DNA from: an uncultured Candidatus Saccharibacteria bacterium
Lineage (GTDB): Bacteria > Patescibacteriota > Doudnabacteria > UBA920
Length of the DNA: 64,000 nucleotides
Assembly (NCBI GenBank): GCA_964561085.1
Contig: CAZLNP010000002.1
Location: forward strand, 75,440 to 139,439
Reading direction: 5' to 3'
Both the position numbers and the translations under genes were made by a program. Below are positions 1,089 to 63,965 of this stretch, one piece after another. The first letter of the stretch is position 1; each line of letters begins with the position of its first letter. The notes under the pieces were generated by a model. That model was given only the letters and a program-made list of their open reading frames with translations. It did not search any database and was not told the DNA's origin.

Positions 1089-1090
1089 TT

Positions 1091-2482: not shown

Positions 2483-2535
2483 AAAATTTAGAATTCAATA
2501 ATTTTATATTCTAATTTTTAGTAAAAAATTAGAAT

Positions 2536-2576: not shown

Positions 2577-2587
2577 AATACAGAACT

Positions 2588-3727: not shown

Positions 3728-3733
3728 AAAACT

Positions 3734-5722: not shown

Positions 5723-5723
5723 T

Positions 5724-6923: not shown

Positions 6924-6924
6924 T

Positions 6925-8235: not shown

Positions 8236-8237
8236 AC

Positions 8238-12719: not shown

Positions 12720-12724
12720 ATAGT

Positions 12725-13555
12725 ATGACACAAGCCCTTCAAATGTTGGTCCCTAGTGGTAATCCAAATGGAATGAAAATAGTAGAACTTGCTGGATGGT
12801 CTGGTAAATGTTTTGTCGTACCTAGGCAAAGCCTTAAAGAATTGAAAGATAGATCAGAAGTAAACCAACCAGGTATATATTTACTTTTTGGCCCAGATGA
12901 GGAATCTATCAATGACCTTGCTTATATAGGAGAATCTGAAAATTTTTATTCACGAATAGCTACCCATGATTCAGGAAAAGATTTTTGGGATGTTGCTGTA
13001 GTTTTTACAGGTGGATTGAATCGGGCATTCGTAAAATATTTAGAATACAAATCTACTCTCCTTGCTCAGCAAGCTAAGCGAATGGTCATAACTAACAAAG
13101 TTAATCCACAAGAAAATACATTATCTGAATTTGAGAAAGTCACAGCAGATCAATACTTTGAAAATATGCAATTTATTTTAAGTGCTTTTAATTACGAATT
13201 ATTTGAAACTGTTTCCGAAGCAATTGTTAGTGATAAAATGTATTTTTTCAAAGCAGGTGGCGTAGATGCTAAAGCACAATTACTAGATAATGGTAATTTA
13301 AATGTTTTGAAAGGCTCTTTGGGTAGGATTAAGGAAGTAGCTTCATTTGGGGGTTGGTCTTTAGCTGCGCGTAAACGATTTTTGGAAGATGGCACTTTAA
13401 TTAAAAATGATGATACTTCTTATCTTTTTACAAAGGATGTTATCTTTAAAAGCCCATCAGCCGCCGCTGCGACAGTTATAGGACGTTCCGCAAATGGTTG
13501 GACTAAGTGGAAAGATGAATTTGGAAATACTTTGGATGATAATTTACGAAAATAA
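12725..13555 (+). CDS. GIY-YIG nuclease-family protein with a DUF4357-like C-terminal domain
   Basis: GIY-YIG module is PGIYLLFG...LAYIGESENFYSRIATH. The ~120-aa C-terminal domain ends in ...SPSAAAATVIGRSANGWTKWK. The gene begins 6 nt after hsdR. Confidence 0.55.
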   Translation: MTQALQMLVPSGNPNGMKIVELAGWSGKCFVVPRQSLKELKDRSEVNQPGIYLLFGPDEESINDLAYIGESENFYSRIATHDSGKDFWDVAVVFTGGLNRAFVKYLEYKSTLLAQQAKRMVITNKVNPQENTLSEFEKVTADQYFENMQFILSAFNYELFETVSEAIVSDKMYFFKAGGVDAKAQLLDNGNLNVLKGSLGRIKEVASFGGWSLAARKRFLEDGTLIKNDDTSYLFTKDVIFKSPSAAAATVIGRSANGWTKWKDEFGNTLDDNLRK

Positions 13556-13651
13556 ATAAGTTATGTTTCTAAATTAATCATGCTGAGGGAATCCAATTTG
13601 AATGGATCAACCAATGCCATCATTCTATGTAAATAGGTGTATAATTAAACC

Positions 13652-14290
13652 ATGATAAAAATAATTTTAATTGTAATCGCAGTGTTACTCGTTGTTTGGT
13701 CTTTGTACGGTTATTTTGCTGCTCGAGTTGAACAAGCTGAGTATTCAGTGTTAAGTGAAAATAAAGTTTACGAAGTACGAAAATATCCTGAGCATATTGT
13801 TGCGCAGGCCACAGTATCTGGTGAGTATACAGAATCTTTAAACGAAGGTTTTACTATTGTTGCTGGATACATCTTTGGTGGTAATAAAAAGCAAGAGCCA
13901 ATCGCTATGACTGCTCCAGTTGTAATAGGGAACGAAGAAGATACTTCCACTCCTATTGCCATGACTGCCCCTGTAGTTGCTGGTGGTACTGAGCAATCGC
14001 GCACTGTATCTTTTGTTATGCCAAAAAAATATTCAATGGAAACTTTGCCTGTACCTACAGACCCGAGAGTTAAAATAGTAAAAGTTCCAGAGCAGACCTT
14101 CGCAGTTCTCAAGTTTAGCTGGTGGCGAACTACTTCTCGTATTGAAAAAAATGGCAAAAAGCTCTTAGAAGCTTTAAATACAGATGGCGTGAGGATTGTT
14201 AACCCCGAAGTAAAATACGCAGGATACAACGCACCATTCACTCCACCATGGATGAACAGAAACGAAGTAATGGTAGAAATACAACCGTAA
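13652..14290 (+). CDS. SOUL heme-binding-family protein (N-terminal TM anchor)
   Basis: A TM helix is followed by the SOUL/HBP-like block AEYSVLSENKVYEVRKYPEHIVAQATV... There is an internal duplication PIAMTAPVVIG / PIAMTAPVVAG. Confidence 0.55.
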   Translation: MIKIILIVIAVLLVVWSLYGYFAARVEQAEYSVLSENKVYEVRKYPEHIVAQATVSGEYTESLNEGFTIVAGYIFGGNKKQEPIAMTAPVVIGNEEDTSTPIAMTAPVVAGGTEQSRTVSFVMPKKYSMETLPVPTDPRVKIVKVPEQTFAVLKFSWWRTTSRIEKNGKKLLEALNTDGVRIVNPEVKYAGYNAPFTPPWMNRNEVMVEIQP

Positions 14291-35385: not shown

Positions 35386-38300
35386 ATGAGCAAAAGCGAA
35401 CCTACAGCGGCACAAGCCCGCTATCGCATGAGATTTAGTACTCATGTCGTACCAGATTCCGCAAGAAAGACTGTATCTAAATTCAACCGTATGTGGTTGG
35501 GTAAAGCTATGGCTTTTGTTGCGGTTTTTTCATTAATTCTTAGCAGTGTTGCCCCGGTAGATGCATTAGCCGCTGTTGCACCAACTGTGACCGTTTGTCA
35601 TTTGGAAGGAAATGGGACATATCAGTCTCTAACTTTCAATTCAAATGCTTTGCAAGGTCATCTTGGCCACGGTGATGTTTATCCAGTTCCAGCTTTGGGC
35701 TGTGACTCTTTAAACCAAGTACCTCAAGCAATCCCAACAGAAACAATAATTGTTAATCAGAACACATCAGCTGGTGAAAACCTTCCTGGATGGATGTTTA
35801 ACCGTGATGCTTCTACAGATACTCCATATGTTTTTAACACTGGGAATGCAAGCATTGGTTCTGGTAGCTTAAACATTTTGCCAATTGGTGCGACAGCTGC
35901 AGACAAAATGGTTGCTGAAAACTTCATCAACTCACCAATTTCTACCATCACTGGAATTTACTACGACTTTAAGATTGGTGCCGGTGGATTAGCTACTCAA
36001 GAAGAGCAGTTCTACATGAATGTATATGCAAACTTCGGTGTGTCTCCAGATAATAAGTTCTATGACTGTCGATACAATGTAGTTCCTACTATCGGTTCTA
36101 CTGGTAGCTATACAACTGTTTCTTTTGACCCTAACTTAACTTACCCTGTAACTCAGAGCGGATCTTCTCCGTTTGCTTGTCCTGCATCTCCTGCGGCTAT
36201 GGAAGGCATGAGCGCTGGATCCAACATTCGTATGTTCTCCCTTAACGTAGGGGATACTTCTGCATCTGACCTTGGTTTAGATGGATATTTAGATAAAGTA
36301 GTAGTGTCTAAAACTACACTTATTACAACATATGACTTTGAACCAGCTCCTCCACGAATTGCTTCTAAAGTAGCGATTCAAAAAGTTTGGCAAAACTCTG
36401 CTGGTCAGCCAATCCCTGCACCAGATAACAAAGATGATATTACAATCACTGTAACTACTGAAAATCAGAATCAAGATGTTTGTACTTACGATGCACAAGG
36501 TGTTTTGACTTGTAGTGGCATTGTAAACAGCTACACAGACGAAACAATCAAAGTAGAAGAAACTGGTTTGCCGGTTGGTTGGGAAGTGGATCCTGCAACT
36601 GTTGGTAATGCTGTTAATCCAGTTTGTCCTGTGCCAGACCCTCAAGGACAGCGCTCAATTGATTGTACTCATACAGTTATTAACAAATTAAAAACTGCAT
36701 CTCCTTGTGGACTTGAATTAGTAACTAATGGTGGTTTTGAACTTCCTGAAGTAACTGACGGTAACAAGTGGCAGGTTTTTGACTCAGGCGCTGCTGGCTT
36801 AGGCTGGTCTGTTGACTGGGTTCGTCCAAGCGGAGCTCCAGCAAAAGCGAAAGCTGAATTGCACGAAGGCGTGAACTCTTGGAACTCTCACGGCGGTAAT
36901 CAGCATACAGAAATTGATTCTGACTGGGCTGGTCCTTCTAGTGGTCCAGACGGTGAAGATGCATCTGCGACACTTTTCCAAGACCTTATTACTAAAAATG
37001 GTGGCGTATACACAGTAAGTCTGTGGACATCACCTCGTCCAGGAACTGGAACTTCTGAAAATAAGACTGAAGTGAAAATGGGCTCAACTGTACTAGATAC
37101 TATCATCGAAGATGGCTCTGCTAACTCACAAACAGTTTGGACAAAACATACATACACATTCACAGCTACTTCTGGTGTAACTCGTTTGAGTTTGACCGAT
37201 CTAGGAACTGGAAATTCTCTAGGTGCTTTCTTAGACGACGTTAGCGTAAAAGAAGAATGTCTATCAGATGTAACAATCTGTAAATTAGATCAAAACCAAA
37301 ATCCACTTTCTGGATGGGATGTATTCTTGAAAGGTCCAATCGCAGATACAGTAGTGGTTTCTGGAACTTCTAATACTCCAGCTTTGTCTGATCCTCTTGC
37401 TGCTGGTGACTACGTTCTAGAAGCTTCTGGAACATACACATACCGCGCAGGCAGCGCAGGCGACATTAGTGACGCTGCATATTCTGAACGTCAGCCTTCC
37501 GATGCTGGCATTGACTCTAGCTTCTACTCTGGGGCACATTTGCCATGGGTACGAAATCTTGATCTAGGTGCTGGTTACGGTGGCTACTTAGGCATTCGTG
37601 TTGACGGTGCTAACTTCAACTGGGGTACTGAATATGAATCTAGCCATGAGTATGCTGCTTTCAAGAATGTTGCTGCTTTGGCTCCGCTATCTTTCTATAT
37701 TGAAGATGGAAATAGCTATGCAGATAACGCAGGAAGCTTAACTGTTGATATTTATCCTATTGTTAAAGGCACTACTGGCCAAAATGGTTGTGTGACTTTA
37801 CAAGATGTTGATTACGGTACTTACGATCTTGATGAACTAATGAAAGATGGTTGGGTTAATGTATCTGGTAAGGGCACTAATGCAGTTGTCGATATGCCAA
37901 CTGAAAACTTTACTCTAGTTAACCGATGTACTAACAACTGTGAATCTACTGTAAAAATTTGTAAGGTAAACGATCAAGGTACTCCGTTGCCAGGTTGGAA
38001 TGTTTACTTAAAAGGAGATAACTTAGAAACACTTGACGTTGACTCCGCTGACGTTGCAGGTGAAACTACCACCGATGTGCTTGAAGCAGGACAAGAATAT
38101 GTTGTTGAAATAGAAGGGGAATGGCAGAACCGTGGATTTGAAACTGTTGATGCTAGCTTTACTACTCCAGATGGTTGGACTACTGTCCTAGCTGCACCAC
38201 AAGGTGGTTATTCAGATGACCTACTAGAAACTCAAATTAACCAAGCATTCGTAAACTGGGGTCCTTACTCTGGTGAACCAGATCACAAGTACAGCTTGGT

Positions 38301-39903
38301 AATGACTGGTACTGGAACTACTGCTAATTTCCGTGTTTACGATGCGGCTAGCGGCAATCCTGCAGACATGAGCCCAGCTTGGTATGGTGATAATGTTGGC
38401 GAGCTAACTGTTAAAATTTATCCAATCTACCAGGGCACAACTGGTGCAGATGGCTGTGTGACTATTGATGGTGTTCCATTTGGGACTTACACTCTTGGCG
38501 AAACAATGCAAGAAGGTTGGGAAAACGAACGTGGTAATGGTTCTACTGTAATTGTTAACGAACCATACGAACCTGGTACAAACTTGAATGAAAATCCATT
38601 CGTACTAGTTAACACTTGTACTGGTGAAGATTGTCAAGATATTGGACCATGTACTGTTGCTCCTATTAATGTAATTAGCGGTGCTGCAACTTTCTTCTCT
38701 GGTTTGAAAGAGGGTGGTCCAGCTCCAATTGCTTTGAATAACGCTAATAACTATCCTTCTGGCACTACTGGTGTTGCACAACCTGCAGCTCCTACTGGGT
38801 ACGCAGGAGCATGGGATGGATCTATCAATGATCCTGACATTGCTGGTTCTGGCGCAGTATACATAAGCAACGATTCAACTCAGCCTACTCTTGCAGGCGG
38901 ACCTGGATACGATGGTTCAGTTGATTCTTGGAGATTATTCAAACACACCTTTACTATTCCAGCTGGCGCTACAAACATCAGCCTTCCAGTATTGCACTTC
39001 GCTGCAGACAATGAAGTTAGTGTGTTCCTAGACGAAGCGTTCATTGGTTTCAATGATAGCTTCTCTACTGTAGTTGATACTGCTCCGTTAGCGTTAACTC
39101 CTGGTACTCATACTTTGGAATTCGCTGTAAAGAACTATGCGTTTGATCAAACAAACAACCCAACTGGTGTAATCTACAAGCTAGATACTATTACTTACGA
39201 ATGTCCAGATGGTGGCGATGATGAACGCTACTCTGTTAATGGTTTAGTTTACACAGATTCAGATCAAGATGGCACTCAAGATGGTGGTGAATCTGCATTA
39301 CCTGGAATGACAATTAAGCTGCTAGAAGCAACTCCAGATGGTGAAGATGCTGGAACTGACCTAGATGAAGCAGAAGTAGCTACTGATGTTTCTGATGCAA
39401 ATGGTCTATACTCATTTGATCTAATTCCTGCTGGTTGCTACATCGTTCGTGAAATTCCTGATGGATACACACAAACTGAACCTGCTGTAGCGGGACACGA
39501 ATATTACATTAATGTTGGTGGCGCAGACTGTGTCTTCAACAATGCTGATGAGAAGAAGTCTCTTGTTGGTTCACTCTTCATCAAGACAGCTCAAGCTGCA
39601 ACTGTTGATACAGTATTCGTAGCTTACGTAGGCCAACAATTAAAGTTTGGTAACTACACTACAAATGGCGGCGGCGGTTCTGGTGGGTCCGGTGGATCTG
39701 GTTCATCTTCTGATGACGATGAAACTCCACTTGTTCCAACTGTTTTGGGTGACTCTACTAACACTCCATCAGATCCAGTTGGCCAAGTATTAGGCGCTAC
39801 TACATTGCCTCGTACAGGAAGCCCAACATGGGCATTGCTAATGATCGTTCTATTAGCAGCTCCAATGTTATACTTCCGTAAACTTGCTGTGAAGAAAGCC
39901 TAG
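35386..39903 (+). CDS. large cell-surface protein with tandem Cna-B/SdrD-B-like domains and a C-terminal LPxTG sorting signal
   Basis: C-terminus LPRTGS + hydrophobic WALLMIVLLAAPMLYF + RKLAVKKA is a classical sortase substrate. Internal ~220-aa tandem repeats occur (TICKLDQNQNPLSGWDVFLKG... / VKICKVNDQGTPLPGWNVYLKG...; SLTVDIYPIVKGTTGQNGCVTLQDV... / ELTVKIYPIYQGTTGADGCVTIDGV...). There is an SdrD-B-like block (NGLVYTDSDQDGTQDGGESALPGMTIKLL...GLYSFDLIPAGCYIV) and a GGGSGGSGGSGSSSDDD linker. The true start may be an internal Met (35428 or 35491) preceding the signal peptide. Confidence 0.7.
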   Translation: MSKSEPTAAQARYRMRFSTHVVPDSARKTVSKFNRMWLGKAMAFVAVFSLILSSVAPVDALAAVAPTVTVCHLEGNGTYQSLTFNSNALQGHLGHGDVYPVPALGCDSLNQVPQAIPTETIIVNQNTSAGENLPGWMFNRDASTDTPYVFNTGNASIGSGSLNILPIGATAADKMVAENFINSPISTITGIYYDFKIGAGGLATQEEQFYMNVYANFGVSPDNKFYDCRYNVVPTIGSTGSYTTVSFDPNLTYPVTQSGSSPFACPASPAAMEGMSAGSNIRMFSLNVGDTSASDLGLDGYLDKVVVSKTTLITTYDFEPAPPRIASKVAIQKVWQNSAGQPIPAPDNKDDITITVTTENQNQDVCTYDAQGVLTCSGIVNSYTDETIKVEETGLPVGWEVDPATVGNAVNPVCPVPDPQGQRSIDCTHTVINKLKTASPCGLELVTNGGFELPEVTDGNKWQVFDSGAAGLGWSVDWVRPSGAPAKAKAELHEGVNSWNSHGGNQHTEIDSDWAGPSSGPDGEDASATLFQDLITKNGGVYTVSLWTSPRPGTGTSENKTEVKMGSTVLDTIIEDGSANSQTVWTKHTYTFTATSGVTRLSLTDLGTGNSLGAFLDDVSVKEECLSDVTICKLDQNQNPLSGWDVFLKGPIADTVVVSGTSNTPALSDPLAAGDYVLEASGTYTYRAGSAGDISDAAYSERQPSDAGIDSSFYSGAHLPWVRNLDLGAGYGGYLGIRVDGANFNWGTEYESSHEYAAFKNVAALAPLSFYIEDGNSYADNAGSLTVDIYPIVKGTTGQNGCVTLQDVDYGTYDLDELMKDGWVNVSGKGTNAVVDMPTENFTLVNRCTNNCESTVKICKVNDQGTPLPGWNVYLKGDNLETLDVDSADVAGETTTDVLEAGQEYVVEIEGEWQNRGFETVDASFTTPDGWTTVLAAPQGGYSDDLLETQINQAFVNWGPYSGEPDHKYSLVMTGTGTTANFRVYDAASGNPADMSPAWYGDNVGELTVKIYPIYQGTTGADGCVTIDGVPFGTYTLGETMQEGWENERGNGSTVIVNEPYEPGTNLNENPFVLVNTCTGEDCQDIGPCTVAPINVISGAATFFSGLKEGGPAPIALNNANNYPSGTTGVAQPAAPTGYAGAWDGSINDPDIAGSGAVYISNDSTQPTLAGGPGYDGSVDSWRLFKHTFTIPAGATNISLPVLHFAADNEVSVFLDEAFIGFNDSFSTVVDTAPLALTPGTHTLEFAVKNYAFDQTNNPTGVIYKLDTITYECPDGGDDERYSVNGLVYTDSDQDGTQDGGESALPGMTIKLLEATPDGEDAGTDLDEAEVATDVSDANGLYSFDLIPAGCYIVREIPDGYTQTEPAVAGHEYYINVGGADCVFNNADEKKSLVGSLFIKTAQAATVDTVFVAYVGQQLKFGNYTTNGGGGSGGSGGSGSSSDDDETPLVPTVLGDSTNTPSDPVGQVLGATTLPRTGSPTWALLMIVLLAAPMLYFRKLAVKKA

Positions 39904-39981
39904 GCTAACTTTTAGCAAGCTGTAACTGCTATAATAAAACTACCTTCGAAAGAGGGTAGTTTTTATTTTCCCACCTTAACC

Positions 39982-40590
39982 ATGGTCAAATTAACTATGA
40001 TAAAAAAGATCGCTTTAGTAATAGTTTTAGTCATTCTTGGATTCGGTTTATTGAATGCTCCTTTTTTATGGCAGCAAATTAAATTTACTTTTAGTAGTCC
40101 TGACTCTTCTGTAGAACAAGCTCCTGTAGGGGATGACCTGGGGTCTGAAGCCAAGGTTTCCCCGAATACTATTAATATTCCAAGTTTGGGTATTTCAGCG
40201 CCAATTGTAGAATCTGTAGAATCTAATGAAGATTCTTATCAAGAAGCGCTTCAGAATGGCGTTGTGCACTTCCCAGGCACCGCTGTGGCGGGGGAATTAG
40301 GTAATGCCTACTACTTTGGCCACTCGTCAGATTTTGCTTTTGCCAAGGGAAATTACAAGACTGTATTTGCTCTATTGCCACGAATTGAAATGGGCGCTGA
40401 GATTCGCATAAGTAATCCTGATGGACAAGAATTTAAATACACTGTAATCGATAAGAAAGTGGTGAGTAATAATGATGTTAGCGTGTTAGAGCAAGGGGAG
40501 CGTAAGGAAAAACTGCTTAGCTTGCAAACATCGTATCCGGTTGGAACTGCTTTGCAAAGATATGTTGTTGTTGCGAAGTTGGTTGAGTAA
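39982..40590 (+). CDS. sortase-fold protein with Ser in place of the catalytic Cys (TLxTC -> SLQTS)
   Basis: N-terminal TM anchor. Layout is sortase-like: conserved His region YYFGHSSDF, then ...GAEIRIS...QEFKYTVIDKKVV...KLLSLQTSYPVGTALQRYVVVAKLVE. The nucleophile position is encoded by TCG (Ser); the conserved Arg is retained. Confidence 0.6.
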   Translation: MVKLTMIKKIALVIVLVILGFGLLNAPFLWQQIKFTFSSPDSSVEQAPVGDDLGSEAKVSPNTINIPSLGISAPIVESVESNEDSYQEALQNGVVHFPGTAVAGELGNAYYFGHSSDFAFAKGNYKTVFALLPRIEMGAEIRISNPDGQEFKYTVIDKKVVSNNDVSVLEQGERKEKLLSLQTSYPVGTALQRYVVVAKLVE

Positions 40591-40689: not shown

Positions 40690-41091
40690 TTATACACTGA
40701 GCATATTTTTTAACCTCTGAATGACGTGACTGAATTCTTTTTCTTTTAAAACATAAGATTTTCTGTAAAGTCTTTTAGTACTCAGTAATTTTAATTGTGC
40801 TAATACGGCTGCGACTTGATTGCTGTTGTTATCTACGTAATTGTAATAAAAGTCTAAACTCTTTTGCATAGATGTTAATGGTACAACCCATACCATGTTC
40901 CTATTAAATTTTTTTATAATTAGAACAGGTCTAAGAAAATCACTGCCTTTCCCATTTTGTTCATAGCCAATATTCTTACCGACTGAAGCTATCCAAACAT
41001 CCCTGATTTTCGGAAAGGACCTTGTCGGCTTACCGAAATGCATTTCTTGTTTTTTCTTATTCCAAATTTCGAAACTTTCTAATTCATTCAT
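40690..41091 (-). CDS. MazF/PemK-like (type II toxin fold) protein, with no cognate antitoxin ORF detected
   Basis: ...IRDVWIASVGKNIGYEQNGKGSDFLRPVLIIKKFNRNMVWVVPLTS... parallels the MazF/PemK pattern (GxxIWxVDfxPxxGxEQxGxRPxLVlS...PiTs). Confidence 0.5.
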   Translation of the reverse strand: MNELESFEIWNKKKQEMHFGKPTRSFPKIRDVWIASVGKNIGYEQNGKGSDFLRPVLIIKKFNRNMVWVVPLTSMQKSLDFYYNYVDNNSNQVAAVLAQLKLLSTKRLYRKSYVLKEKEFSHVIQRLKNMLSV

Positions 41092-53434: not shown

Positions 53435-54292
53435 ATGAGTAAAAAAATCCTTGGCACAGTTCTATTTGTTTTGATTATCACGATTGTGGTTTTTGAAGGT
53501 ATCCCAAAACAGGCTTTTGATTGGGTTCGCAAAACCGAAGTTGGAGCACGGGTTTTGAGCTATGTTCAAAATGATCAGAATCTTTCTGGGCTACTTCGTG
53601 GTCCTTTGGATGGATTAAATTCAAGTGAGCTAACGTCATCTGGGATTATTACTTGGACAAATACTCAGCGTGAAGCTCAAGGACTTATCCCGCTTCATGA
53701 AAATGCACAGCTTAGGAAAGCTGCAGAAGCAAAAGTTGATGATATGTTTGCAAAGCAATATTTCGAACATGAGTCACCTGATGGAAAGACACCTGCAGAT
53801 GTAATTCGCAAAGCTGGTTATGCCTACATTGTTGTAGGAGAAAATTTAGCTTTGGGAAATTTTAAAGATGATGAAACTTTAGTACAAGCATGGATGGATA
53901 GCCCGGGACACCGCGCAAATATTTTGAACGGGAAGTATCAGGAAATTGGCACTGCGGCAAAAAAAGGAATGTTCGAAGGTAAAGAAGTATGGTTGGCAGT
54001 TCAAGAGTTTGGCGCGCCACTTTCTGCTTGTCCAACTACGGGAACAGGCGTGAAAGCACAGATTGATTCTAATCGTAATCAACTAGCGGTTAATCAAGCT
54101 GAGCTGCAAAAGCAAAAAGCTGCGTTAAATGCTAATCGTTATAAAAGCCAAGATGAATACAATACCGCTGTTGCTAAGTACAATGCATTGGTAGAACGAA
54201 CTAATGCTTTGGCAGATGATACGCAGAGACTTGTGACTGATTACAACAATAGTGTTAATCAGTTTAATAAATGCTTGGAGTCAAATTCATGA
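53435..54292 (+). CDS. CAP/SCP/PR-1-like domain protein with N-terminal TM and C-terminal coiled coil
   Basis: CAP signatures HYTQVVW-like (GHRANILNGKYQEIGTAA) and ...SPGHRANI. TATAAT at 53417-53422 upstream. Confidence 0.65.
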   Translation: MSKKILGTVLFVLIITIVVFEGIPKQAFDWVRKTEVGARVLSYVQNDQNLSGLLRGPLDGLNSSELTSSGIITWTNTQREAQGLIPLHENAQLRKAAEAKVDDMFAKQYFEHESPDGKTPADVIRKAGYAYIVVGENLALGNFKDDETLVQAWMDSPGHRANILNGKYQEIGTAAKKGMFEGKEVWLAVQEFGAPLSACPTTGTGVKAQIDSNRNQLAVNQAELQKQKAALNANRYKSQDEYNTAVAKYNALVERTNALADDTQRLVTDYNNSVNQFNKCLESNS

Positions 54293-55596
54293 AAATTGAT
54301 GTCGCTGGTTTAAAGATTGATGCTATTACAAAAGTAGAGTTGCTTGAGCAGATTAAGCAAAGAGTCTCGGCAAAGCAAAAAACTTTTGTCACTACTCCTT
54401 ACTCTGAATTTTTATATGCGAGTTTGCGTAGCAAAGAAACACGAGCGCTTTTAAACAGTGCAGATTTTTCTATTCCAGATGGCATAGGGATTTTGTGGGC
54501 GCAAGTGTTTATGTCACAACCATTCACTTTCTCCAACTTCTACTTAAAGATTGTACAAGCGTGGTGCCAGGTTGTGTGGACCGGGGCATCTATATTGATG
54601 AAGCCAAGTCGTATATATAAAGATATACCTGAAAAAATTGTCGGCGCAGATTTAGCGTGGGATTTAGCTGAGTTGGCTGCTAAAAATAATTTCTCGATTT
54701 ATTTGCTTGGTGCAAGAGGGGATATTGCAAATAAAGTGGCTGATAAGTTTATGAGTAAATTCCCAGGTATAAAAATTGCCGGCACTTCTAATAAAGATAT
54801 TTCAGACCCATCAATTTTTTCTGATATCACAAAAGTAGCCCCAGATATAATATTCGTGGCGTTTAGTAGACTCTCCTCTGAAGCATGGATAAAAGAAAAC
54901 CTAAAAGACTTGCCTGCATCTTTGGCAATTGGCTTAGGTGGAACTTTTGATTATATTGCAGGGGCTAAGATAGCTCCGCCGAAGTTCATTCGCGCAATTG
55001 GTTTGGAGTGGCTCTATAGACTTATAACTCAACCTTCTAGATTGAAAAGAATCATCGATGCCACTTGGGGGTTAGTGCTGGGATTAGTTAGATATAAAGT
55101 TTGGACATCTACTCCGCTAAGAAAAAATGGTGTGGCAGTAGTGGTAAATAAATACGGCAAAATTTTGTTATGCAGAAGAGTGCCAGCCCCAGCAAAACAT
55201 GGGGGAGACCCTCATGTAATACTTAATGATTATTGGCAATTTCCTCAGGGGGGATTAGACGAAGGTGAAGATCCTTTGGAAGGAACCAAAAGAGAATTGT
55301 TCGAAGAAACTTCTATAAAAAGTATTGAGCTTATTAAAGTTGCGGAATACATTAATACTTATGAATGGAATAATGCAAACCGCCCATTTATAACTAATCG
55401 GTTTAAGCATCGGGGTCAGGAACAGATAACTGCGATTCTTAAGTTTACGGGTAGTGATGAAGAGATTCATCTTGATCAACGTGAACTAATTGATTACAAA
55501 TGGGTAAATTCTCAAGATGTAGATAAAATTATATCGCCTGATAGGCGTAGGCACGCCGAGATTATCCTTGCAGAATTGGCCGAAATTCAACTATAA
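54289..55596 (+). CDS. fusion protein: WecB/TagA/CpsF (GT26) glycosyltransferase domain + C-terminal NUDIX hydrolase domain
   Basis: GT26-like N-terminal region (IYLLGARGDIANKVADKF...PDIIFVAFSRLSSEAWI...). C-terminal NUDIX box QFPQGGLDEGEDPLEGTKRELFEETS. The ATG overlaps the upstream stop (ATGA). Confidence 0.6.
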   Translation: MKIDVAGLKIDAITKVELLEQIKQRVSAKQKTFVTTPYSEFLYASLRSKETRALLNSADFSIPDGIGILWAQVFMSQPFTFSNFYLKIVQAWCQVVWTGASILMKPSRIYKDIPEKIVGADLAWDLAELAAKNNFSIYLLGARGDIANKVADKFMSKFPGIKIAGTSNKDISDPSIFSDITKVAPDIIFVAFSRLSSEAWIKENLKDLPASLAIGLGGTFDYIAGAKIAPPKFIRAIGLEWLYRLITQPSRLKRIIDATWGLVLGLVRYKVWTSTPLRKNGVAVVVNKYGKILLCRRVPAPAKHGGDPHVILNDYWQFPQGGLDEGEDPLEGTKRELFEETSIKSIELIKVAEYINTYEWNNANRPFITNRFKHRGQEQITAILKFTGSDEEIHLDQRELIDYKWVNSQDVDKIISPDRRRHAEIILAELAEIQL

Positions 55597-57152: not shown

Positions 57153-57195
57153 AAATTGTTTAGAATTTTGCCCCAAATGTGATATAATTTGAGTA

Positions 57196-58500
57196 ATGTT
57201 TACTCAAAGATTAGAAACCAAAACTATCTATAAAATCGTTATTTTAACCGCATTAATTGGTTTAATTAGTGTTGGATTTTTTGTTTTCTTGCTTACTTCA
57301 GCGGGGAACTCGGCTTTAGCCGCTAATGATCAAAAAGATATCTTAAACGATAAGCTGCGCAGGCTTCAAGATCAGATTAATAGCTATCAACAGTCTATTA
57401 ACCAAACCAGGAAACAAGGGGCTAGTTTGCAGAACGAAATTAGTATTTATGACAACCAGATTGCGTCTTTAGAACTCCAAATTCAAGCTAATGAGACTCA
57501 GACTGAAGACACTAATTTACAAATTGCTGAGTTGCAGACTCAAATCGATCGCCGTCGTTTAGAAATTGAAGAAAATAGAGTTATATTAGGTCAGCTAGTT
57601 GTTCAGCTCGCTGAGTTGGACGATAAATCTTTCTTGAATATTGGTTTAGGCACAGACAACTTTTCATCATTCTTAGATCAAATTCAGTACAACCGAAGCA
57701 TTACACAACAAGTTTATACTTTAGTTGCGAAAATTAAGGAAATTAAAACAAAGCTAGAAGTTCAGCAAGAAGATTTGAAGAAGTCATTACAGAAGCTCAA
57801 GGAGCTTTCGGGGCAACTTGATATCGCAAGGCAAGCATTAGATGAAGACCGTTCTTCCAAAGCTAATTTGCTAGCTCAAACTAAAGGAACAGAAGCTAAT
57901 TACAAAAAACTTCTTAACGCTAGTAATGCCGAAGAAGATAAGATTCAAGCCGAGCTCTATAACTTAGATGCAGGTGCTCGTCAGCGCGCTGGTAACCCAA
58001 CAATTTCTGCAAAGAAAGGTGTGTTAGGCTGGCCAATGGACGGCATAATGACCCAGGGATATGGTAATACAGGATTTACATCACTTGGATATAATTTCCA
58101 CAATGGAATTGACTTAGCCGCTCCTGCTGGTAAACCAATTTATGCTGCAGCAGATGGTACAGTAGCTCATTGTAATTCTAGCCAGTCTGCATATGGTAAC
58201 TGGTGTACTATCTATCATACGGTAGATACAAACAGTGGCGCGCGCGATATTGTAACTTTGTATGCTCACATGCGTTCTATGGTGGTATCACCAGGAGCAA
58301 ATGTTAAGCTTGGCGATTTAATTGGCTATGAAGGTAATACTGGAAATACAACAAGATTATTATATGGACCTGATCGAGGGTATCACTTGCACTTCACTGT
58401 GTTCGACAGAAAAGGATATACCGTAACTAAAGGGTCTTATGGAAACTATATGGTGCCGTCAGGCGTAACTTACAACCCACTTAGCTTCCTTGGTAGATGA
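57196..58500 (+). CDS. M23/LytM peptidase with an N-terminal TM and long coiled coil (EnvC-like layout)
   Basis: M23 motifs HNGIDLAAPAGKPIYAAADGTV and GYHLHF. An extended -10 TGTGATATAAT lies just upstream. Confidence 0.8.
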   Translation: MFTQRLETKTIYKIVILTALIGLISVGFFVFLLTSAGNSALAANDQKDILNDKLRRLQDQINSYQQSINQTRKQGASLQNEISIYDNQIASLELQIQANETQTEDTNLQIAELQTQIDRRRLEIEENRVILGQLVVQLAELDDKSFLNIGLGTDNFSSFLDQIQYNRSITQQVYTLVAKIKEIKTKLEVQQEDLKKSLQKLKELSGQLDIARQALDEDRSSKANLLAQTKGTEANYKKLLNASNAEEDKIQAELYNLDAGARQRAGNPTISAKKGVLGWPMDGIMTQGYGNTGFTSLGYNFHNGIDLAAPAGKPIYAAADGTVAHCNSSQSAYGNWCTIYHTVDTNSGARDIVTLYAHMRSMVVSPGANVKLGDLIGYEGNTGNTTRLLYGPDRGYHLHFTVFDRKGYTVTKGSYGNYMVPSGVTYNPLSFLGR

Positions 58501-59648
58501 TCAAACCATTCCTAAATTTTTTGAAAAACTTAGCGCCTAGTCGCCAAACAGGGCGGGCAATACTTACTGGTTTTTTCATTGTGCAATTACTGTTTGGGTA
58601 CATGGGAGCAATGCAGGTTAATACTGTTCACGCCCAACTAATACCTAACGCATTAAACTCAAATACAAATAGTAGCCCGGCTGCTATTAAGGTTCCGGTG
58701 TATAATGGAGTTGAGGATAGTATTAAAAACTTTCTTTGTGTGCCGGATGACAATAATTTAGGCACAGCTCTTTTTGATTGTATAAGTAAAGTTTACAGAT
58801 TCGGAATTGCTTTTGGTGGTATTGCGCTAGTTTTCTTCATTGTCTTTGCCGGGTATTTGTACATTGCCGGTGGGGAAGCGAGCAAGGGCAAAGGTAAAAC
58901 GATTTTCACTACGGCGCTCACAGGTATGGCCATCATTCTTTCCAGTTATGTGCTGTTAAGGTTTATCAATCCAAATTTAGTAATAATTAAACCGATTCAA
59001 ACTCCAATTTTTCAGGCAGGGGATTTACCTAGATGTGAGGATGTAGGGTTCCAAGGTAATTGTGTGCTGCCGAGTGGTAACGTACAGATTACTTCAAATG
59101 GTGGAAACGGTGCCGCGTATGGTGGCAGAGGCTGTAAGCCAATCACAAATAATAATTCTCCAGCTTCTATTGATAACCTCTCTAAAACATGTTGGGGAAA
59201 ATTTGGAGCACAGGTTGTAAAGAATGCTTCTATAGTTGCTGCGAACGAAACAGGTGGCCGTCCGATCGATGTTTTCGCGGGATCTTGTGGAGCTGGTAAA
59301 AAACCTGCTAGGTGCTCTGGTGGAGAAATTCCTGTGTTTGGAGTTTTCCAAATCAATATAGCCGCCCATCCAATCCCTGATGGTAAAGGGAATTTATTAG
59401 ATTGCCCTTCTGCATTTACACGAGGTAGCGCAAGTTTTTGCAGTAATGGATGTCAGGTGAAGGCTGATAAAAAGGATTTGTATAACCAATGTTATCAAGC
59501 ACTTAAAAATTTAAACAACGAGTTCGAGGTGGCTTGTAGGTTGTATAAAGCTAATTTGGGAAATCCAAGAGGTAAAACTGGAAAAGGGTTAGGGTTTGAT
59601 GATTGGGGGAATACGGCCAATGAACATGGAAACAAGTGTGGATTCTAA
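58497..59648 (+). CDS. secreted protein: N-terminal VirB2/TrbC-pilin-like module + Cys-rich C-terminal domain (possibly lysozyme-like)
   Basis: N-terminal module (VPVYNGVEDSIKNFLCVPDD...YRFGIAFGGIALVFFIVFAGYLYIAGGEASKGKGKTIFTTALTGMAIILSSYVLL...CEDVGFQGNCVLP) is paralogous to the genes at 60909 and 62078. The C-domain has 12 Cys and an ...ANETGG...VFGVFQINIAAH stretch reminiscent of the E...G[LV]MQ motif of lytic transglycosylases. Confidence 0.5.
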   Translation: MIKPFLNFLKNLAPSRQTGRAILTGFFIVQLLFGYMGAMQVNTVHAQLIPNALNSNTNSSPAAIKVPVYNGVEDSIKNFLCVPDDNNLGTALFDCISKVYRFGIAFGGIALVFFIVFAGYLYIAGGEASKGKGKTIFTTALTGMAIILSSYVLLRFINPNLVIIKPIQTPIFQAGDLPRCEDVGFQGNCVLPSGNVQITSNGGNGAAYGGRGCKPITNNNSPASIDNLSKTCWGKFGAQVVKNASIVAANETGGRPIDVFAGSCGAGKKPARCSGGEIPVFGVFQINIAAHPIPDGKGNLLDCPSAFTRGSASFCSNGCQVKADKKDLYNQCYQALKNLNNEFEVACRLYKANLGNPRGKTGKGLGFDDWGNTANEHGNKCGF

Positions 59649-59659
59649 TATAAAATTAC

Positions 59660-60187
59660 ATGTTTAAAAACAAGATATACATATTCATCATTGTCGGGAC
59701 AATAATCCTACTCGGATTGTTGGCTTTGCTGTATTTCTTGCCTGAAGATGAAACTAAAAATTCTTCCACAGAAGGTGGCTACCCAGTAGGTGTTTTAGAT
59801 ATCATCAAGAGCCCTGCAGAAAGAATAAATGATAATTTCAACCATTCAATTGTAGATGACAAGTACGTAATTTCTTACGGTGGCGATTTAGAGCAAGGAA
59901 CTTTTTTTATCACAGTAAACGCTGAGCCTGTAGTTGAAGTTTCAAAAATGGCTGAGAAAGTTTTCTTAGAAAAATTGGAAATTGATGAAACATACGCCTG
60001 CGAGTTATATGTAGTCTTAAATGTTCCATCGACTATAGATAGCGATTTGGCAGACTACGATTTTGGCTTGAGTTTCTGTCCTGGACGGATTCACATTGAA
60101 GACGTTCCTCGTAAAAGTATGGAACGAACTCGTTATTACGATGACTCTGACTCATCTTCAAGCACTAGCACTAATCAAATAAGATAA
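59660..60187 (+). CDS. hypothetical membrane-anchored protein
   Basis: N-terminal TM, Ser-rich C-terminus, no motif. Confidence 0.4.
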   Translation: MFKNKIYIFIIVGTIILLGLLALLYFLPEDETKNSSTEGGYPVGVLDIIKSPAERINDNFNHSIVDDKYVISYGGDLEQGTFFITVNAEPVVEVSKMAEKVFLEKLEIDETYACELYVVLNVPSTIDSDLADYDFGLSFCPGRIHIEDVPRKSMERTRYYDDSDSSSSTSTNQIR

Positions 60188-60191
60188 ATAT

Positions 60192-60896
60192 ATGGATTCA
60201 GAAAATAATTCTAGAAACATTTGGCCTTGGATATTAACTATTTTAATTGCGGCATGGTTGATTGGAATGAGTATCATTACAGCAGGGTGGTTAATTTCTA
60301 AAGAGGTTGCGAAGAACTCAAGCGAAACAATTGTAAGTGAGGAAGTAGGAATTCAAAATTTTGATATAGAAATCCCTGCAGGTCTTCCTGTCTTGGGAGA
60401 TAATAACGCTAAAGTAACTATTGTTGAGTTTGCAGACTTTCAATGTCCATTCTGTGGCGATTGGCATAAGAATGTATTTCCTAAAATCAAAGAAAAATAC
60501 ATAGATACTGGCAAAGCCCGTTTTGTTTACATGGATTATGCCTTTTTGGGAGAAGAATCTTATCAGTCAGCGCAGGCATCAAAGTGTGCGCAAGATCAAA
60601 ACAAGTTTTGGGAATATCACGATAAACTGTACGAATCTCAAAACGGTGAAAATGAGGGAGCATTTAGCTCGGCAAACCTTAAAAAATTTGCACTCGACAT
60701 TGGCTTGAACACTTCAGATTTTAATTCTTGCATGGATAATAATAAGTACCTCGGTGAGGTGAGCTCAGATTTAGAAAAAGCTTCCAATTACGATGTGCAA
60801 TCTACTCCAACAGTCTTCATTAATGGTGATAAGTACGAAGGGGTAATGCCATTTGAGACTTACGAGCAAATAATTGAAGAAAAACTAGCTCAGTAA
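60192..60896 (+). CDS. DsbA-family thiol:disulfide oxidoreductase (membrane-anchored)
   Basis: Thioredoxin-fold CxxC (FQCPFCGDWH) with the DsbA-type helical insertion. N-terminal TM. Confidence 0.75.
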   Translation: MDSENNSRNIWPWILTILIAAWLIGMSIITAGWLISKEVAKNSSETIVSEEVGIQNFDIEIPAGLPVLGDNNAKVTIVEFADFQCPFCGDWHKNVFPKIKEKYIDTGKARFVYMDYAFLGEESYQSAQASKCAQDQNKFWEYHDKLYESQNGENEGAFSSANLKKFALDIGLNTSDFNSCMDNNKYLGEVSSDLEKASNYDVQSTPTVFINGDKYEGVMPFETYEQIIEEKLAQ

Positions 60897-60908
60897 AAAA
60901 TAAAAGTA

Positions 60909-62069
60909 GTGCAAAAACTAAAACAAACATTATTTATATCCCTGCTTTGTGTACTTACAGTTATTCCTTATACTGTTCTAGCTCAAGGAACTGCCAACAC
61001 CAATGCTAATGCTAATACCAACAAGGCTACCTATGCTGGAATGGAAGTCCCCAAGTACGGAGGCGTTCAAGATAGCATAGCTCAATTCCTTTGTACTCCT
61101 AGCGAAGGAGCTGCTGATGGAAAAGACCTAGAAAGATGCATTAACAAGATGTACAGATTTGGTATTTCTTTTGGTGGAATAGCTTTGGTATTCTTCCTAG
61201 TATTTGCAGGCTATATGTACATCATGGGAGGGGAATCAGGCAAAACCAAAGCTAAAGGTATTGTGCAGAACGCTTTAGTTGGTATTGCCATACTTTTGGG
61301 TACTTACGTTTTGTTAGGATTCATCAATCCTAATCTTTTGATATTTAAATCTATCCAACCGCCGATCTTTAACGCAGGAAGTTTACCTAAATGCGACGCA
61401 GTTGGATTAGGACAGCAGTGTGTTTTGCCTGGTGGAGGTGTTGCTACTGGTGATGGTCAAGGTGGTGGTACTCCAGTTGGGTCTGTAAATGGGAAAGGTT
61501 TAGAGGGGAAAAAAGTTTTCATTTTTGGTGACTCTCTTACAAAAGGTTTTGCAGCTCAGCTTCAAACTCAAGTGAAGATGGCAAAGCTTGATGTATTGGG
61601 TAAAGGAGGTTCTACTATTGAAGATTGGTTAAATGGTGGAACTTCTTTGAATGGGTCTGTGCCTAAGATATCTGATCATCTTGCTTCGCTATCATCCAAG
61701 CCAGATGTTGTTATAGTTATGCTAGGAACAAACAATACACGAGGTGGAGTTAAGCCTGCCAGTGTTAAGTTGATGGATCAAAAATTAAGCGGGTATAGCG
61801 CTATCTGGATAGCACCTCCAAAATTTAGCCAGCCAAGTTGTTATGGAATTACCCATCAAAATAGTTCCGACGCAGATAATTCCATAGCCTCTGAGTTCAC
61901 TGGCAGCGGTCATTCTGTATTTAAATCGGCAGATAGCAACATTGATTTACAACTCGGTAAATTAAGCGATTGCTCCAAAGCACTAAAAGGAGCCTCTGGT
62001 AGTGGTTACGAGATCCATCCTGGGGTTCCCGGTCATACTAATTGGGCAAAATCATTCTTGGGGAATTAA
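60909..62069 (+). CDS. secreted protein: VirB2/TrbC-pilin-like N-terminal module + SGNH/GDSL hydrolase domain
   Basis: Module EVPKYGGVQDSIAQFLCTP...MYRFGISFGGIALVFFLVFAGYMYIMGGESGKTKAKGIVQNALVGIAILLG... GDSL block I KKVFIFGDSLTKGF; block III VIVMLGTNN. Confidence 0.6.
   Translation: MQKLKQTLFISLLCVLTVIPYTVLAQGTANTNANANTNKATYAGMEVPKYGGVQDSIAQFLCTPSEGAADGKDLERCINKMYRFGISFGGIALVFFLVFAGYMYIMGGESGKTKAKGIVQNALVGIAILLGTYVLLGFINPNLLIFKSIQPPIFNAGSLPKCDAVGLGQQCVLPGGGVATGDGQGGGTPVGSVNGKGLEGKKVFIFGDSLTKGFAAQLQTQVKMAKLDVLGKGGSTIEDWLNGGTSLNGSVPKISDHLASLSSKPDVVIVMLGTNNTRGGVKPASVKLMDQKLSGYSAIWIAPPKFSQPSCYGITHQNSSDADNSIASEFTGSGHSVFKSADSNIDLQLGKLSDCSKALKGASGSGYEIHPGVPGHTNWAKSFLGN
61044..61302 (+). repeat. 259-bp perfect direct repeat, copy 1 (within the 60909 gene)
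   Basis: By reading, identical base-for-base to 62174-62432, including all synonymous positions. Flanking sequence diverges immediately on both sides. Confidence 0.85.
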
Positions 62070-62077
62070 AAATCAAT

Positions 62078-63637
62078 ATGAACAAAATAAAACAAATTCT
62101 AATTGCTATAACTTTAGGGCTGATATTTGCGAATCCCGTGATGGTAATCGCCCAAACTACAAGTAACGCCATCGAAGTCCCCAAGTACGGAGGCGTTCAA
62201 GATAGCATAGCTCAATTCCTTTGTACTCCTAGCGAAGGAGCTGCTGATGGAAAAGACCTAGAAAGATGCATTAACAAGATGTACAGATTTGGTATTTCTT
62301 TTGGTGGAATAGCTTTGGTATTCTTCCTAGTATTTGCAGGCTATATGTACATCATGGGAGGGGAATCAGGCAAAACCAAAGCTAAAGGTATTGTGCAGAA
62401 CGCTTTAGTTGGTATTGCCATACTTTTGGGTAGCTATGTAATTCTTTACTTCATTAACCCAAATTTAACAATTCTTAAGTCCATACAGCCACCAATTTTT
62501 GATGCCGCTAATTTACCAAGATGTGATGAGGTTGGTTTCGGAGAACAATGCGTAGTTCCTTCCGGAGGAGTTAGTAGTGGAGGCGGTGGTAAATGTGTAG
62601 TTCCAATTGCTGAATCATCTCTTAACGGAGCATTTAATAATACTATACACGGTCGCTCTGGACATGGACCAGTTCGTGATGCTCCAAATAGCCCTCCACC
62701 AGAAGGTATTGTTGATGTTGGTGGTAAGGGAGGCTCTCCTGTATTCTCTGCTATAACTGGAAAAGTTGTGCACGAAGGAGACTTAGGCAGAACTGGTAAA
62801 TATGTTTCAATTATTTCTGATCCTGCTGGTGATAGGTACGGTTGCGAGAAGTCTGATGCATGCGCTAATCAAGCCCATATTGACCCAAGCGTTAAAGTTG
62901 GAGACATGGTAACTGCTGGTCAACAGATTGGTGTTCTGACTAACTACTCTACTAATGGGGGAATGGGTCCACACTTGCACATGGAACTAAAACTTGGTGG
63001 GCAGTGGGTTTTAGGTGATGGTTTTAAGGCAACCTGGACTGCAATGAAAACAGCTTGCGCTAATTCCGGGGCGGGGAATGGCGGGGGCGGTGAAGCCCCT
63101 GCAGGAACAGTTGCTGTAAACGATGTTGTAGTGGATATGCAGTATGTTAAAGCTAGCCCCTCAAGTCATAATTTTATGAGCACAGCGTTGTACGTCGGCG
63201 AATTTAGTAAATATGGAAGCGTTTGTTATTTAGCCAGTGACACGGCTGCTAAAATTGCTAAAGCCGCTAAAGCGTTAGAATCTAAAAAGTGGAAAATTAA
63301 AGCATGGGATTGTTATCGACCAATCGAGATTCAAAAAAAGATGTATGATTGGGCTGCAAAAAATGGTAAATCAGGCCTAGTTGCCGTACCAGGGAACGGT
63401 AAGCACCCTAAAGGCATGGCCATTGATGCCACATTGGTTGATGAAAATGGAAAAGATGTTTTAATGCCAACTCACTTTGACTATTTTGTTAAAAATGGCA
63501 TGCAGCATCCCGGCTCTGCAGCATATAATGCAACGCCAAAAGAAGCACGAGATAATGCCGCTTTGTTAAATAAGATCATGACTGACGCTGGTCTTAAACG
63601 AGCTGGTAATGAGTGGTGGCATTTCGAAGAAAAATAA
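62078..63637 (+). CDS. secreted protein: VirB2/TrbC-pilin-like module + M23 peptidase domain + VanX/M15-type D-Ala-D-Ala dipeptidase-like domain
   Basis: Same N-module as 60909, with a 259-nt identical DNA segment. M23-like HLHMELK. VanX-like motifs GKHPKGMAIDATL and NEWWHFE. Start at ATG 62078 (MNKIKQIL...). Confidence 0.6.
   Translation: MNKIKQILIAITLGLIFANPVMVIAQTTSNAIEVPKYGGVQDSIAQFLCTPSEGAADGKDLERCINKMYRFGISFGGIALVFFLVFAGYMYIMGGESGKTKAKGIVQNALVGIAILLGSYVILYFINPNLTILKSIQPPIFDAANLPRCDEVGFGEQCVVPSGGVSSGGGGKCVVPIAESSLNGAFNNTIHGRSGHGPVRDAPNSPPPEGIVDVGGKGGSPVFSAITGKVVHEGDLGRTGKYVSIISDPAGDRYGCEKSDACANQAHIDPSVKVGDMVTAGQQIGVLTNYSTNGGMGPHLHMELKLGGQWVLGDGFKATWTAMKTACANSGAGNGGGGEAPAGTVAVNDVVVDMQYVKASPSSHNFMSTALYVGEFSKYGSVCYLASDTAAKIAKAAKALESKKWKIKAWDCYRPIEIQKKMYDWAAKNGKSGLVAVPGNGKHPKGMAIDATLVDENGKDVLMPTHFDYFVKNGMQHPGSAAYNATPKEARDNAALLNKIMTDAGLKRAGNEWWHFEEK
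62174..62432 (+). repeat. 259-bp perfect direct repeat, copy 2 (within the 62078 gene)
   Basis: See copy 1. Encodes VPKYGGVQDS...GIAILLG of the pilin-like module. Confidence 0.85.
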
Positions 63638-63659: not shown

Positions 63660-63965
63660 CTAAACTAGTTTATTAACTAAATTAACTTTCTCCTTGCGAG
63701 AAAGTTTTTTTATTTCTGCTTCACGAGTAGCAGCTTCTTTTTGATTTTTATGTTCTTCGAAGAAGACAATTTCTTTGGCTCCGTGCGCACGAGTATACTT
63801 AGAACCGGTACCTGACTTGTGAGCTTCTAGTCGGCTATTCAGATCTACAGTGATCCCTGTGTAGTAAGTATCATCTGCACATAGGAGGATGTATACATAC
63901 CAAGGCTTAGCATTGTTTGGGTTGTCTTTAAACATACATAGATTATAACATTCAACACAGGTCAA
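63660..63965 (-). CDS. small GIY-YIG nuclease-family protein (UPF0213/Slx1-like)
   Basis: KPWYVYILLCADDTYYTGITVDLNSRLEAHKSG; 101 aa. Confidence 0.6.
   Translation of the reverse strand: MTCVECYNLCMFKDNPNNAKPWYVYILLCADDTYYTGITVDLNSRLEAHKSGTGSKYTRAHGAKEIVFFEEHKNQKEAATREAEIKKLSRKEKVNLVNKLV

Follow-up and report, generated by a model that had tools for sequence, protein, structure and literature searches.

Arrays of VirB2-like pilins are widespread in the type IV secretion system (T4SS) loci of Patescibacteria, with 2–11 genes per array and a mean identity of 25% (PMC12102498). These VirB2/TrbC pilins have a signal peptide and a pair of hydrophobic helices with a short basic loop between them, and occur as several paralogues side by side in Saccharibacteria and in other candidate phyla radiation (CPR) bacteria (PMC12102498, PMC10633639). 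The T4SS is essential for epibiotic growth (PMC10633639) and its role has been called "completely unknown" (PMC11665869). Also essential in S. epibionticum are the VirB2-like pilins (array SEML1_0014–0019 of Southlakia epibionticum; PMC10633639) and the peptidase and lysozyme genes located by virB4 (PMC12102498, PMC10633639, PMC12857230). Here, we describe an operon of six genes in a 64,000-nucleotide stretch of DNA from an uncultured Candidatus Saccharibacteria bacterium (contig CAZLNP010000002.1, positions 75,440 to 139,439), referred to below as the window. Three of the genes, called a, b and c, encode proteins with a common pilin-type module, the stem, followed by differing carboxy-terminal domains, the heads, which are predicted to act on peptidoglycan. 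We consider it fairly probable (about 0.6) that this is a conserved operon in which recombining pilin-type stems carry peptidoglycan-active heads, and that it is tied to a T4SS or pilus pathway.

The module shares the signal peptide, the two hydrophobic helices and the short basic loop with the Patescibacteria pilins, with homology apparent at the profile level. Whereas the known pilins are encoded inside the T4SS cluster as small separate proteins (three of the genes measure 381–435 nt), the window proteins contain 383, 386 and 519 amino acids, with heads of 180–350 residues, and are encoded outside a T4SS cluster. Further differences are the additional conserved cysteine pairs, a FINPxL...IQPPIF motif in the neck, and modules with strong conservation, even identity, unlike those of the known arrays.

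The VirB1-like hydrolases PrgK (pCF10), TraG (pIP501) and CwlT (ICEBs1) are membrane-tethered peptidoglycan hydrolases, often of several domains, as is predicted for the window proteins. Instead of a pilin-type hairpin they have a plain N-terminal transmembrane or lipoprotein anchor, SLT with CHAP or NlpC/P60 makes up their fixed domain set, their genes belong to the conjugation operon, and no exchange of heads has been described for them. According to the literature cited in PMC12102498, hydrolases of this type open the wall for the T4SS. Fusions of module and hydrolase at loci L023, L026 and L027 adjoin VirB4, as VirB1-like genes do. Modular type IV pilins, such as PilB of Streptococcus sanguinis, likewise combine a conserved pilin module with a functional C-terminal module, which a filament would display; they belong to an unrelated class with a prepilin peptidase, and the modules described in PMC8179133 are adhesive, not enzymatic. 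The Pam pilus of a Saccharibacterium was considered as a counterpart and rejected, being an unrelated Ig-fold system.

Polymorphic toxins and effectors (Rhs, CDI, LXG, and wall hydrolases borne on spikes, such as VgrG-3) consist of a conserved N-terminal trafficking part and a variable C-terminal enzymatic cassette, with the cassettes being replaced by recombination at the junction of the two. The operon resembles them in its conserved stem, its variable head cassette and a small gene co-varying with the head of gene a. It differs in that every head with a Pfam match is peptidoglycan-active, with no nuclease or pore former, in being a core chromosomal operon, and in that no orphan cassettes were seen and no candidate immunity gene follows b or c. 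Overall, the architecture is a variation on three known kinds: VirB2-like pilins, T4SS wall hydrolases tethered to the membrane, and modular effectors of the polymorphic type. No description of pilin–hydrolase fusions, or of their recombination, was found in a search among open-access papers and preprints.

Stem, heads and partner proteins

The module comprises about 135 residues near the amino-terminus of proteins a, b and c, with a mean column identity of 82% in the alignment, which bears out the module of about 130 residues noticed in a preliminary description of the window. Generally, the proteins are laid out as signal peptide, module, glycine-rich linker and head. The core of the module consists of two hydrophobic helices linked by a basic GGExGKxKxK loop, with one pair of invariant cysteines before the first helix and another after the second. 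Hydropathy, alignment and an AlphaFold2 model agree on a predicted cleavable leader and on a pair of hydrophobic helices with a short basic loop, the module being modelled as a helical hairpin (88–124 and 127–157). A hidden Markov model scan revealed no fourth copy in the 64-kb window (next best E 0.076).

An exhaustive profile search with the module in a database of 1.84 billion cluster representatives retrieved 11,086 proteins at E ≤ 1e-3, nearly all combining the module with a variable head at the C-terminus; 382 proteins have E ≤ 1e-10 and 81 have E ≤ 1e-30. A word-index protein search was too insensitive, yielding one match with the module and eight with a 35-sequence module profile. The best matches (about 70) span the whole module, which lies near the amino-terminus of proteins of 300–800 residues, and amino-acid identity of the stem is at least 50% across the family. 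Family size and motif conservation rule out that the module is a generic signal or transmembrane region. Among 120 family members scanned, 67 match PF18895 (T4SS_pilin; best E 9.8e-28) and six match TrbC/VirB2. The 35-sequence profile aligns with PF18895-positive modules at 99.7% in hhalign (E 4.9e-26, 86 columns) and retrieves proteins already annotated as PF18895 at 1e-11 to 1e-19. The assignment of the stem as a divergent T4SS pilin (PF18895, VirB2/TrbC-like), also proposed in the preliminary description, is supported by these family-level profiles, not by the proteins taken singly.

The heads found in the family match the Pfam entries SLT, M15, M23, C39_2, Amidase_2, VanY, GDSL, M15_4, SLT_3 and CHAP, and clustering separates at least 11 head families on the one stem. 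The commonest head (cluster 1, 53 of about 150 matches; for example P0002, P0008, the gene at 2380–3447 of L007 and gene c of L002) has no Pfam or PDB sequence match, and its conserved CH...G.C.D...H.H pattern looks like that of an LAS-type zinc peptidase. Relatives of the module are named "hypothetical protein" in the database; Pfam contains both PF18895 and the neighbouring lysozyme-like PF18896, so that the co-occurrence is visible in databases, though undiscussed.

Variants of the architecture are present among distant members. Proteins P0072, P0077, P0139, P0084 and P0092 have three to four tandem pilin-like hairpins, followed by an SLT or lysozyme-like head. In two distant CPR loci (L020, 879–4386, and L030, 7526–11089) the module is located mid-protein, preceded by an N-terminal Cys-rich domain of some 200 residues and followed by the head, so both protein ends would sit outside the membrane. 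Contigs L005 and L006, from metagenome-assembled genomes (MAGs) labelled uncultured Pseudomonadales, may be CPR contigs that were binned wrongly; they encode proteins matching the pilin-like module, with an M23-like match at another place on the contig.

VirB4-like ATPase genes (P-loop_TraG, AAA_10, CagE_TrbE_VirB) are present in loci L023, L026, L027 and L032, with the module genes following after about 0.7–4 kb. Several of the fusions near VirB4 exceed the PF18895 threshold: they match PF18895 and SLT in L023 (34.0 and 75.4 bits) and L027 (29.0 and 47.1 bits), and PF18895 and M15 in L026 (33.3 and 35.8 bits); in L028, a stand-alone module homologue of 138 residues adjoins VirB4. Judging from gene content, the fusion architecture is T4SS-associated in other CPR lineages and forms a separate operon in this Saccharibacteria lineage. 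A RadA-like gene comes after the module genes in L020 (4402–5730), L023 (10571–11920) and L030 (11096–12394), and in L023 a RecG gene (11968–14034) is next, on the opposite strand; L020, L027 and L030 have open reading frames (ORFs) of matching size and position.

The head of gene a contains 10 cysteines (14 in the whole protein), instead of the 12 counted in the preliminary description, and shows a weak hhalign match to SLT heads (22%). The gene b head, the cluster of which has eight members, is labelled SGNH/GDSL because of its FGDSL and GTNN motifs; its last block reads EIHP instead of DxxH, its Pfam scores are below both GDSL/SGNH cut-offs (28.4 against 32.9 and 21.1 against 23.6 bits), and PDB sequence matches to SGNH esterases are weak (E 0.02). 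The motifs of the esterase suggested earlier are thus present, with profile scores below threshold. The M23 and VanX-like domains expected in gene c were both recovered, by Pfam (M23, 42.2 bits; Peptidase_M15 PF01427, 61.8 bits, cut-off 27), by NCBIfam (D-Ala-D-Ala dipeptidase, 2.8e-23) and by alignment of the HPKGMAID (HxxGxAxD) and EWWH motifs of the M15 domain with PDB entries 9gy1_A and 1r44_A (VanX). As the NCBIfam score of 82.5 bits is under the equivalog cut-off of 176, the M15 domain is taken as a family member, not as the named enzyme. The G+C content of the heads (0.42–0.45, against 0.385 for the window) gives no clear foreign signal.

The LytM domain of E. coli EnvC is degenerate and inactive. 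The product of the first operon gene is organised like EnvC and pneumococcal PcsB: it starts with a membrane or signal segment, continues with a long coiled coil and ends in a domain of the hydrolase type. The likeness to EnvC noticed before applies to the architecture only, as the HxxxD and HxH motifs are intact (FHNGID and YHLHF); Peptidase_M23 scores 79.2 bits (cut-off 28.7) and the EnvC equivalog only 30.5 against a cut-off of 270. FtsEX genes were not noticed in the window. The protein is syntenic, with 61–99% amino-acid identity, in L002, L003, L004, L010–L013 and L016, and the same gene is annotated in L033, L036 and L037.

The DsbA-like protein matches Thioredoxin_4 (141.9 bits) and DSBA (51.4 bits) and has an N-terminal transmembrane segment and a CPFC motif at residues 85–88. 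In L013, L014, L019, L020, L021, L026, L031, L033, L036 and L037, the gene just upstream of a module gene is DsbA-like, and in L032 a DsbA-like gene is located about 1.7 kb downstream of the module gene. This adjacency, conserved even in distant CPR loci, agrees with the linkage proposed previously and speaks for a functional tie to the conserved cysteines, which are predicted to be extracytoplasmic. The 175-residue membrane protein, for the model of which no fold match was found, occurs in two sequence types that co-vary with the head of gene a in eight of nine loci: type 1 with the lysozyme-like head (window, L007, L033, L036, L037) and type 2 with an SLT-related head (L002, L003, L010), L013 being the exception. 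It is possibly a partner or inhibitor of the gene a head.

The 259-nucleotide repeat and the replacement of heads

Genes b and c share 259 nt of exactly identical DNA at an offset of 1130, at the positions given in the preliminary description (Table 1); the tract starts at a codon boundary in both genes. An exact repeat of this length in 64 kb cannot be chance. No other repeat longer than 30 nt is present in the region, except for the 72%-identical module copy in gene a. The 5' sides of the repeat, encoding the signal peptides, and the heads are unrelated between the two genes, as previously described. On the 3' side, the claim of completely different flanks does not hold: module homology runs on for about 150 nt at about 59–65% nucleotide identity, with 58.8% over the 68 nt of the same module just 3' of the tract (codon alignment).

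The independent Saccharibacteria MAG L002 has its own exact tract of 239 nt between b and c (10010–10248 and 11117–11355). Its borders lie within about two codons of those in the window, while the identity of the tract to that of the window is only 73–74%; the heads differ between the two operons. Paralogues that are identical within a genome and diverged between genomes point to concerted evolution by gene conversion. The gene a modules have not been homogenised with those of b and c, and are orthologue-like across genomes, with 62–74% identity.

The close strain L007 is 96.6% identical at the nucleotide level over positions 59079–61396 of the window. Between its DsbA gene and a GIY-YIG gene, it has a single gene, for a protein of 543 residues, in place of b and c. 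This gene is a mosaic, with a b-type leader, the shared tract (97.7% identical), 36 nt equal to gene c, which begin exactly at the end of the window repeat, and then a head of another family. Head types also vary at syntenic positions in L002, L003, L010, L013, L033, L036 and L037: across genomes, position a has three different heads of the lysozyme/SLT type, while positions b and c have SGNH, M15_4, a Cys/His-rich head without family match, or M23 plus VanX. Two neighbouring genes of the distant CPR locus L020 have module DNA alone in common (83.7% over 209 nt, including 62 nt exact), while their N- and C-terminal domains are unrelated.

The mosaic gene and the varying syntenic heads indicate an exchange unit that starts in the middle of helix 2; it comprises the second half of this helix, the neck and the head, with the first part of the module kept uniform. 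Read at the level of sequence, the repeat by itself shows module homogenisation, while head exchange rests on the comparison across genomes. Both gene conversion and head replacement are supported as recurrent events, so that the gene conversion or domain shuffling invoked in the preliminary description extends beyond the window to L002, L007 and six other syntenic loci.

Possible function of the operon

In a mechanism that would account for these observations, the hairpin inserts with both termini outside the cell and the basic loop inside, as expected from the topology of VirB2-type pilins. Both termini being outside, the cysteine pairs and the heads would be extracytoplasmic, within reach of DsbA and peptidoglycan. 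The co-encoded DsbA would oxidise the cysteine pairs of the module, and the heads would cleave peptidoglycan. Through the pilin-type module, the enzymes would be coupled to the pathway of the T4SS or pilus and would open the wall where the apparatus passes: at least that of the producer, possibly also that of the host. The hydropathy scan reveals a single N-terminal hydrophobic segment each for the M23 protein, DsbA and the 175-residue protein. With such plain single-pass anchors on the three other operon proteins, a conserved pilin-type stem probably has a specific role, most likely the coupling of the enzymes to the T4SS or pilus pathway. A bolder version, which we regard as quite unlikely, is that the modules are true minor pilins, which the T4SS extracts and builds into or onto the tip of an enzyme-armed pilus of the conjugative type that cuts the producer's wall and then the host's, with the heads being a polymorphic effector set that helps to fix host range.

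Several points weigh against the coupling of wall enzymes to a T4SS. Taken singly, the window proteins score 17.4, 16.5 and 15.1 bits with PF18895 (cut-off 26.6) and 16.2 and 14.7 bits with TrbC (cut-off 27.9). Fold searches cannot separate the hairpin of the module from generic helical hairpins and have no weight either way: Foldseek found no match at E ≤ 0.001 for the gene a model in the PDB, and sequence searches with the module and the gene a head against PDB chains gave chance matches only. No T4SS genes were found among the large upstream ORFs of the window scanned with Pfam, the remaining ORFs being inspected by eye, and only about 360 bases of the window follow the operon, which limits this check; none are annotated in the syntenic loci L033, L036 and L037 either. 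The neighbourhood is of the housekeeping kind (GluRS, deformylase, formyltransferase), which fits ordinary autolysins. The SGNH assignment of the gene b head is weak, and the activity of the gene c M23 domain is uncertain because the usual HxxxD position reads E-G-I-V-D, without a histidine, although HLH is present. The enzymatic action of the heads, the membrane topology and the localisation are predictions made from sequence. Finally, the two perfect tracts were each assembled from short-read metagenome data, for which simplification of the graph could lift an identity of about 97–99% to 100%.

A possible though unlikely alternative, which overlaps with our proposal and differs in the target, is a polymorphic effector system in which a pilus takes the heads, along its length or at its tip, to the host cell, where they cut host peptidoglycan, their turnover tracking the wall chemistry of different Actinobacteria hosts. 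Pilins of a T4SS leave the membrane by extraction and are built into a pilus, and the modules would have to behave likewise; a head of 200–400 residues on every subunit would be bulky. Strains with 96.6% identity differ in their heads, which is unusual for housekeeping autolysins, and the diversity of heads on one conserved stem also fits a host-directed arsenal. The identity of the stem, at least 50% against the mean of 25% in pilin arrays (PMC12102498), suggests a conserved partner. The T4SS linkage of the fusions in other CPR and the T4SS requirement of epibiotic growth (PMC11665869, PMC10633639) are consistent with a host target, as is the small gene after gene a, which co-varies with the head as an immunity or partner gene would. 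L013 breaks this co-variation, however, genes b and c are without a candidate immunity gene, and the operon is core and syntenic, and led by an M23 enzyme of the division type.

That the enzymes are ordinary housekeeping autolysins, with the hairpin a pilin-derived membrane anchor without present T4SS link and the heads remodelling the cell's own wall in growth and division alongside the coiled-coil M23 protein, is unlikely. The position of the operon between GluRS and housekeeping genes is kept in at least nine loci, the coiled-coil M23 protein evolves at about the pace of GluRS (75% against 72% amino-acid identity between the window and L002), position a always has a glycan-cleaving head, and no T4SS genes are nearby among the ORFs scanned. 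An elaborate, strongly conserved hairpin with cysteine pairs and a neck would need some other reason, however, when three proteins of the same operon manage with a single N-terminal segment, and both the turnover of heads between close strains and the VirB4 linkage in other lineages argue for the coupling to a T4SS or pilus pathway instead.

Very improbable is an assembly artefact, in which the 259-nt repeat arose by collapse or as a chimera of two strains or loci. In its favour, the window probably stems from short-read metagenome assembly, breaks occur nearby in other assemblies of the same strain, and the exact products of genes b, c and DsbA gave no other record in the look-up. Against it, the independent MAG L002 has an equivalent perfect repeat of different sequence, L007 separately has the shared tract joined to a b-type leader, and the tract keeps the reading frame and has sharp borders at homologous codons. 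An assembly graph would presumably include a segment of b head plus c leader only if the repeat flanks both sides, so that an artefact might raise the identity by a few percent, not create it. Assembly simplification could not create the contrast between tract and flank.

These proteins are candidates for the job of the T4SS that Saccharibacteria need to live on their hosts, and concrete ones on which to test how that system gets through one cell wall or two. The turnover of heads is a possible molecular basis of host specificity. Patescibacteria make up a large share of bacterial diversity, and the combination of a pilin-type module with peptidoglycan hydrolases is a large, previously undiscussed family, linked to the T4SS in several CPR lineages and recombining in Saccharibacteria. 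The locus also offers a clean natural case of concerted evolution of a protein stem together with cassette replacement of catalytic heads, at a conserved junction in the middle of a transmembrane helix.

Features and surroundings of the operon

The six genes are all on the plus strand, with gaps of at most 12 nt or overlaps between them, and all six products start with a signal or transmembrane segment according to the hydropathy scan (Table 1). For gene c, the ATG at 62078 was preferred over the TTG at 62042 after comparison with the homologues P0002 and P0004. The G+C content of the window is 38.5%. Over the region as a whole, there is no enrichment of promoter-like sites.

Table 1. Positions of operon genes, repeat copies and putative signals in the window
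Feature	Positions	Strand	Remarks
Promoter-like site, TTTAGA-18-TATAAT with upstream TG	57159–57188	+	consensus match only; just 5' of the first operon gene
Coiled-coil and M23 (LytM) peptidase, membrane-anchored	57196–58500	+	M23 domain about 58096–58407 (Pfam Peptidase_M23)
Gene a, 383 aa	58497–59648	+	signal peptide aa 1–47; module 58680–59093; Cys-rich lysozyme-like head 59094–59645
175-aa single-pass membrane protein	59660–60187	+	position after gene a conserved
DsbA-like thiol:disulfide oxidoreductase, membrane-anchored	60192–60896	+	CPFC at 60444–60455
Gene b, 386 aa, GTG start	60909–62069	+	signal peptide; module 61047–61466; SGNH/GDSL-like head about 61500–62066
Repeat copy 1	61044–61302	+	gene b codons 46–131: extracellular (predicted) Cys pair, helix 1, basic loop, first half of helix 2
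Gene c, 519 aa	62078–63637	+	signal peptide; module 62168–62581; M23 62711–63007; VanX-type M15 63125–63631
Repeat copy 2	62174–62432	+	gene c codons 33–118
Terminator-like hairpin, then T run	63684–63706	+	consensus match only; after gene c

Close relatives were found in MAGs labelled Candidatus Saccharibacteria. The usual operon in these relatives consists of the genes for the M23 protein, a, the small membrane protein, DsbA and b, with the extra gene c in the window, L002 and L003. The order of the genes for a formyltransferase, a deformylase, a CAP protein, WecG-NUDIX, GluRS, the coiled-coil M23 protein and gene a is kept in L002, L010, L013, L033, L036 and L037, and partly kept in L003, L004, L011, L012 and L016, which identifies a core chromosomal neighbourhood. 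A mobile-element or T4SS-island setting of the window is ruled out by its gene content and this conserved synteny. The look-up of the exact 175-residue product returned the short contig L001 only. L001 ends inside the DsbA gene and L004 inside gene a; such breaks at the cluster in assemblies of near-identical strains are expected if repeats or strain variation lie downstream. At 54271–55596 of the window, a WecG/TagA-type glycosyltransferase and a NUDIX domain are fused in one ORF, while the WecG gene is without the NUDIX part in L037 and apparently also in L002.

Elsewhere in the window, an island of the defence type (1052–12719) contains genes for a PIF1-like helicase (1052–2482), a Fic protein (2588–3727) and a type I restriction-modification system (HsdM, 3734–5722, and HsdR, 9774–12719), with a DUF2130 gene (5724–6923) and a Shedu SduA gene (8680–9777) between HsdM and HsdR. 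A gene at 40690–41091 on the minus strand encodes a toxin of the MazF/PemK type. Positions 35386–40590 encode a surface protein of 1505 residues with SpaA/SdrD-type domains, which ends in an LPRTG-like sorting motif and a hydrophobic tail and is directly followed by a sortase gene.

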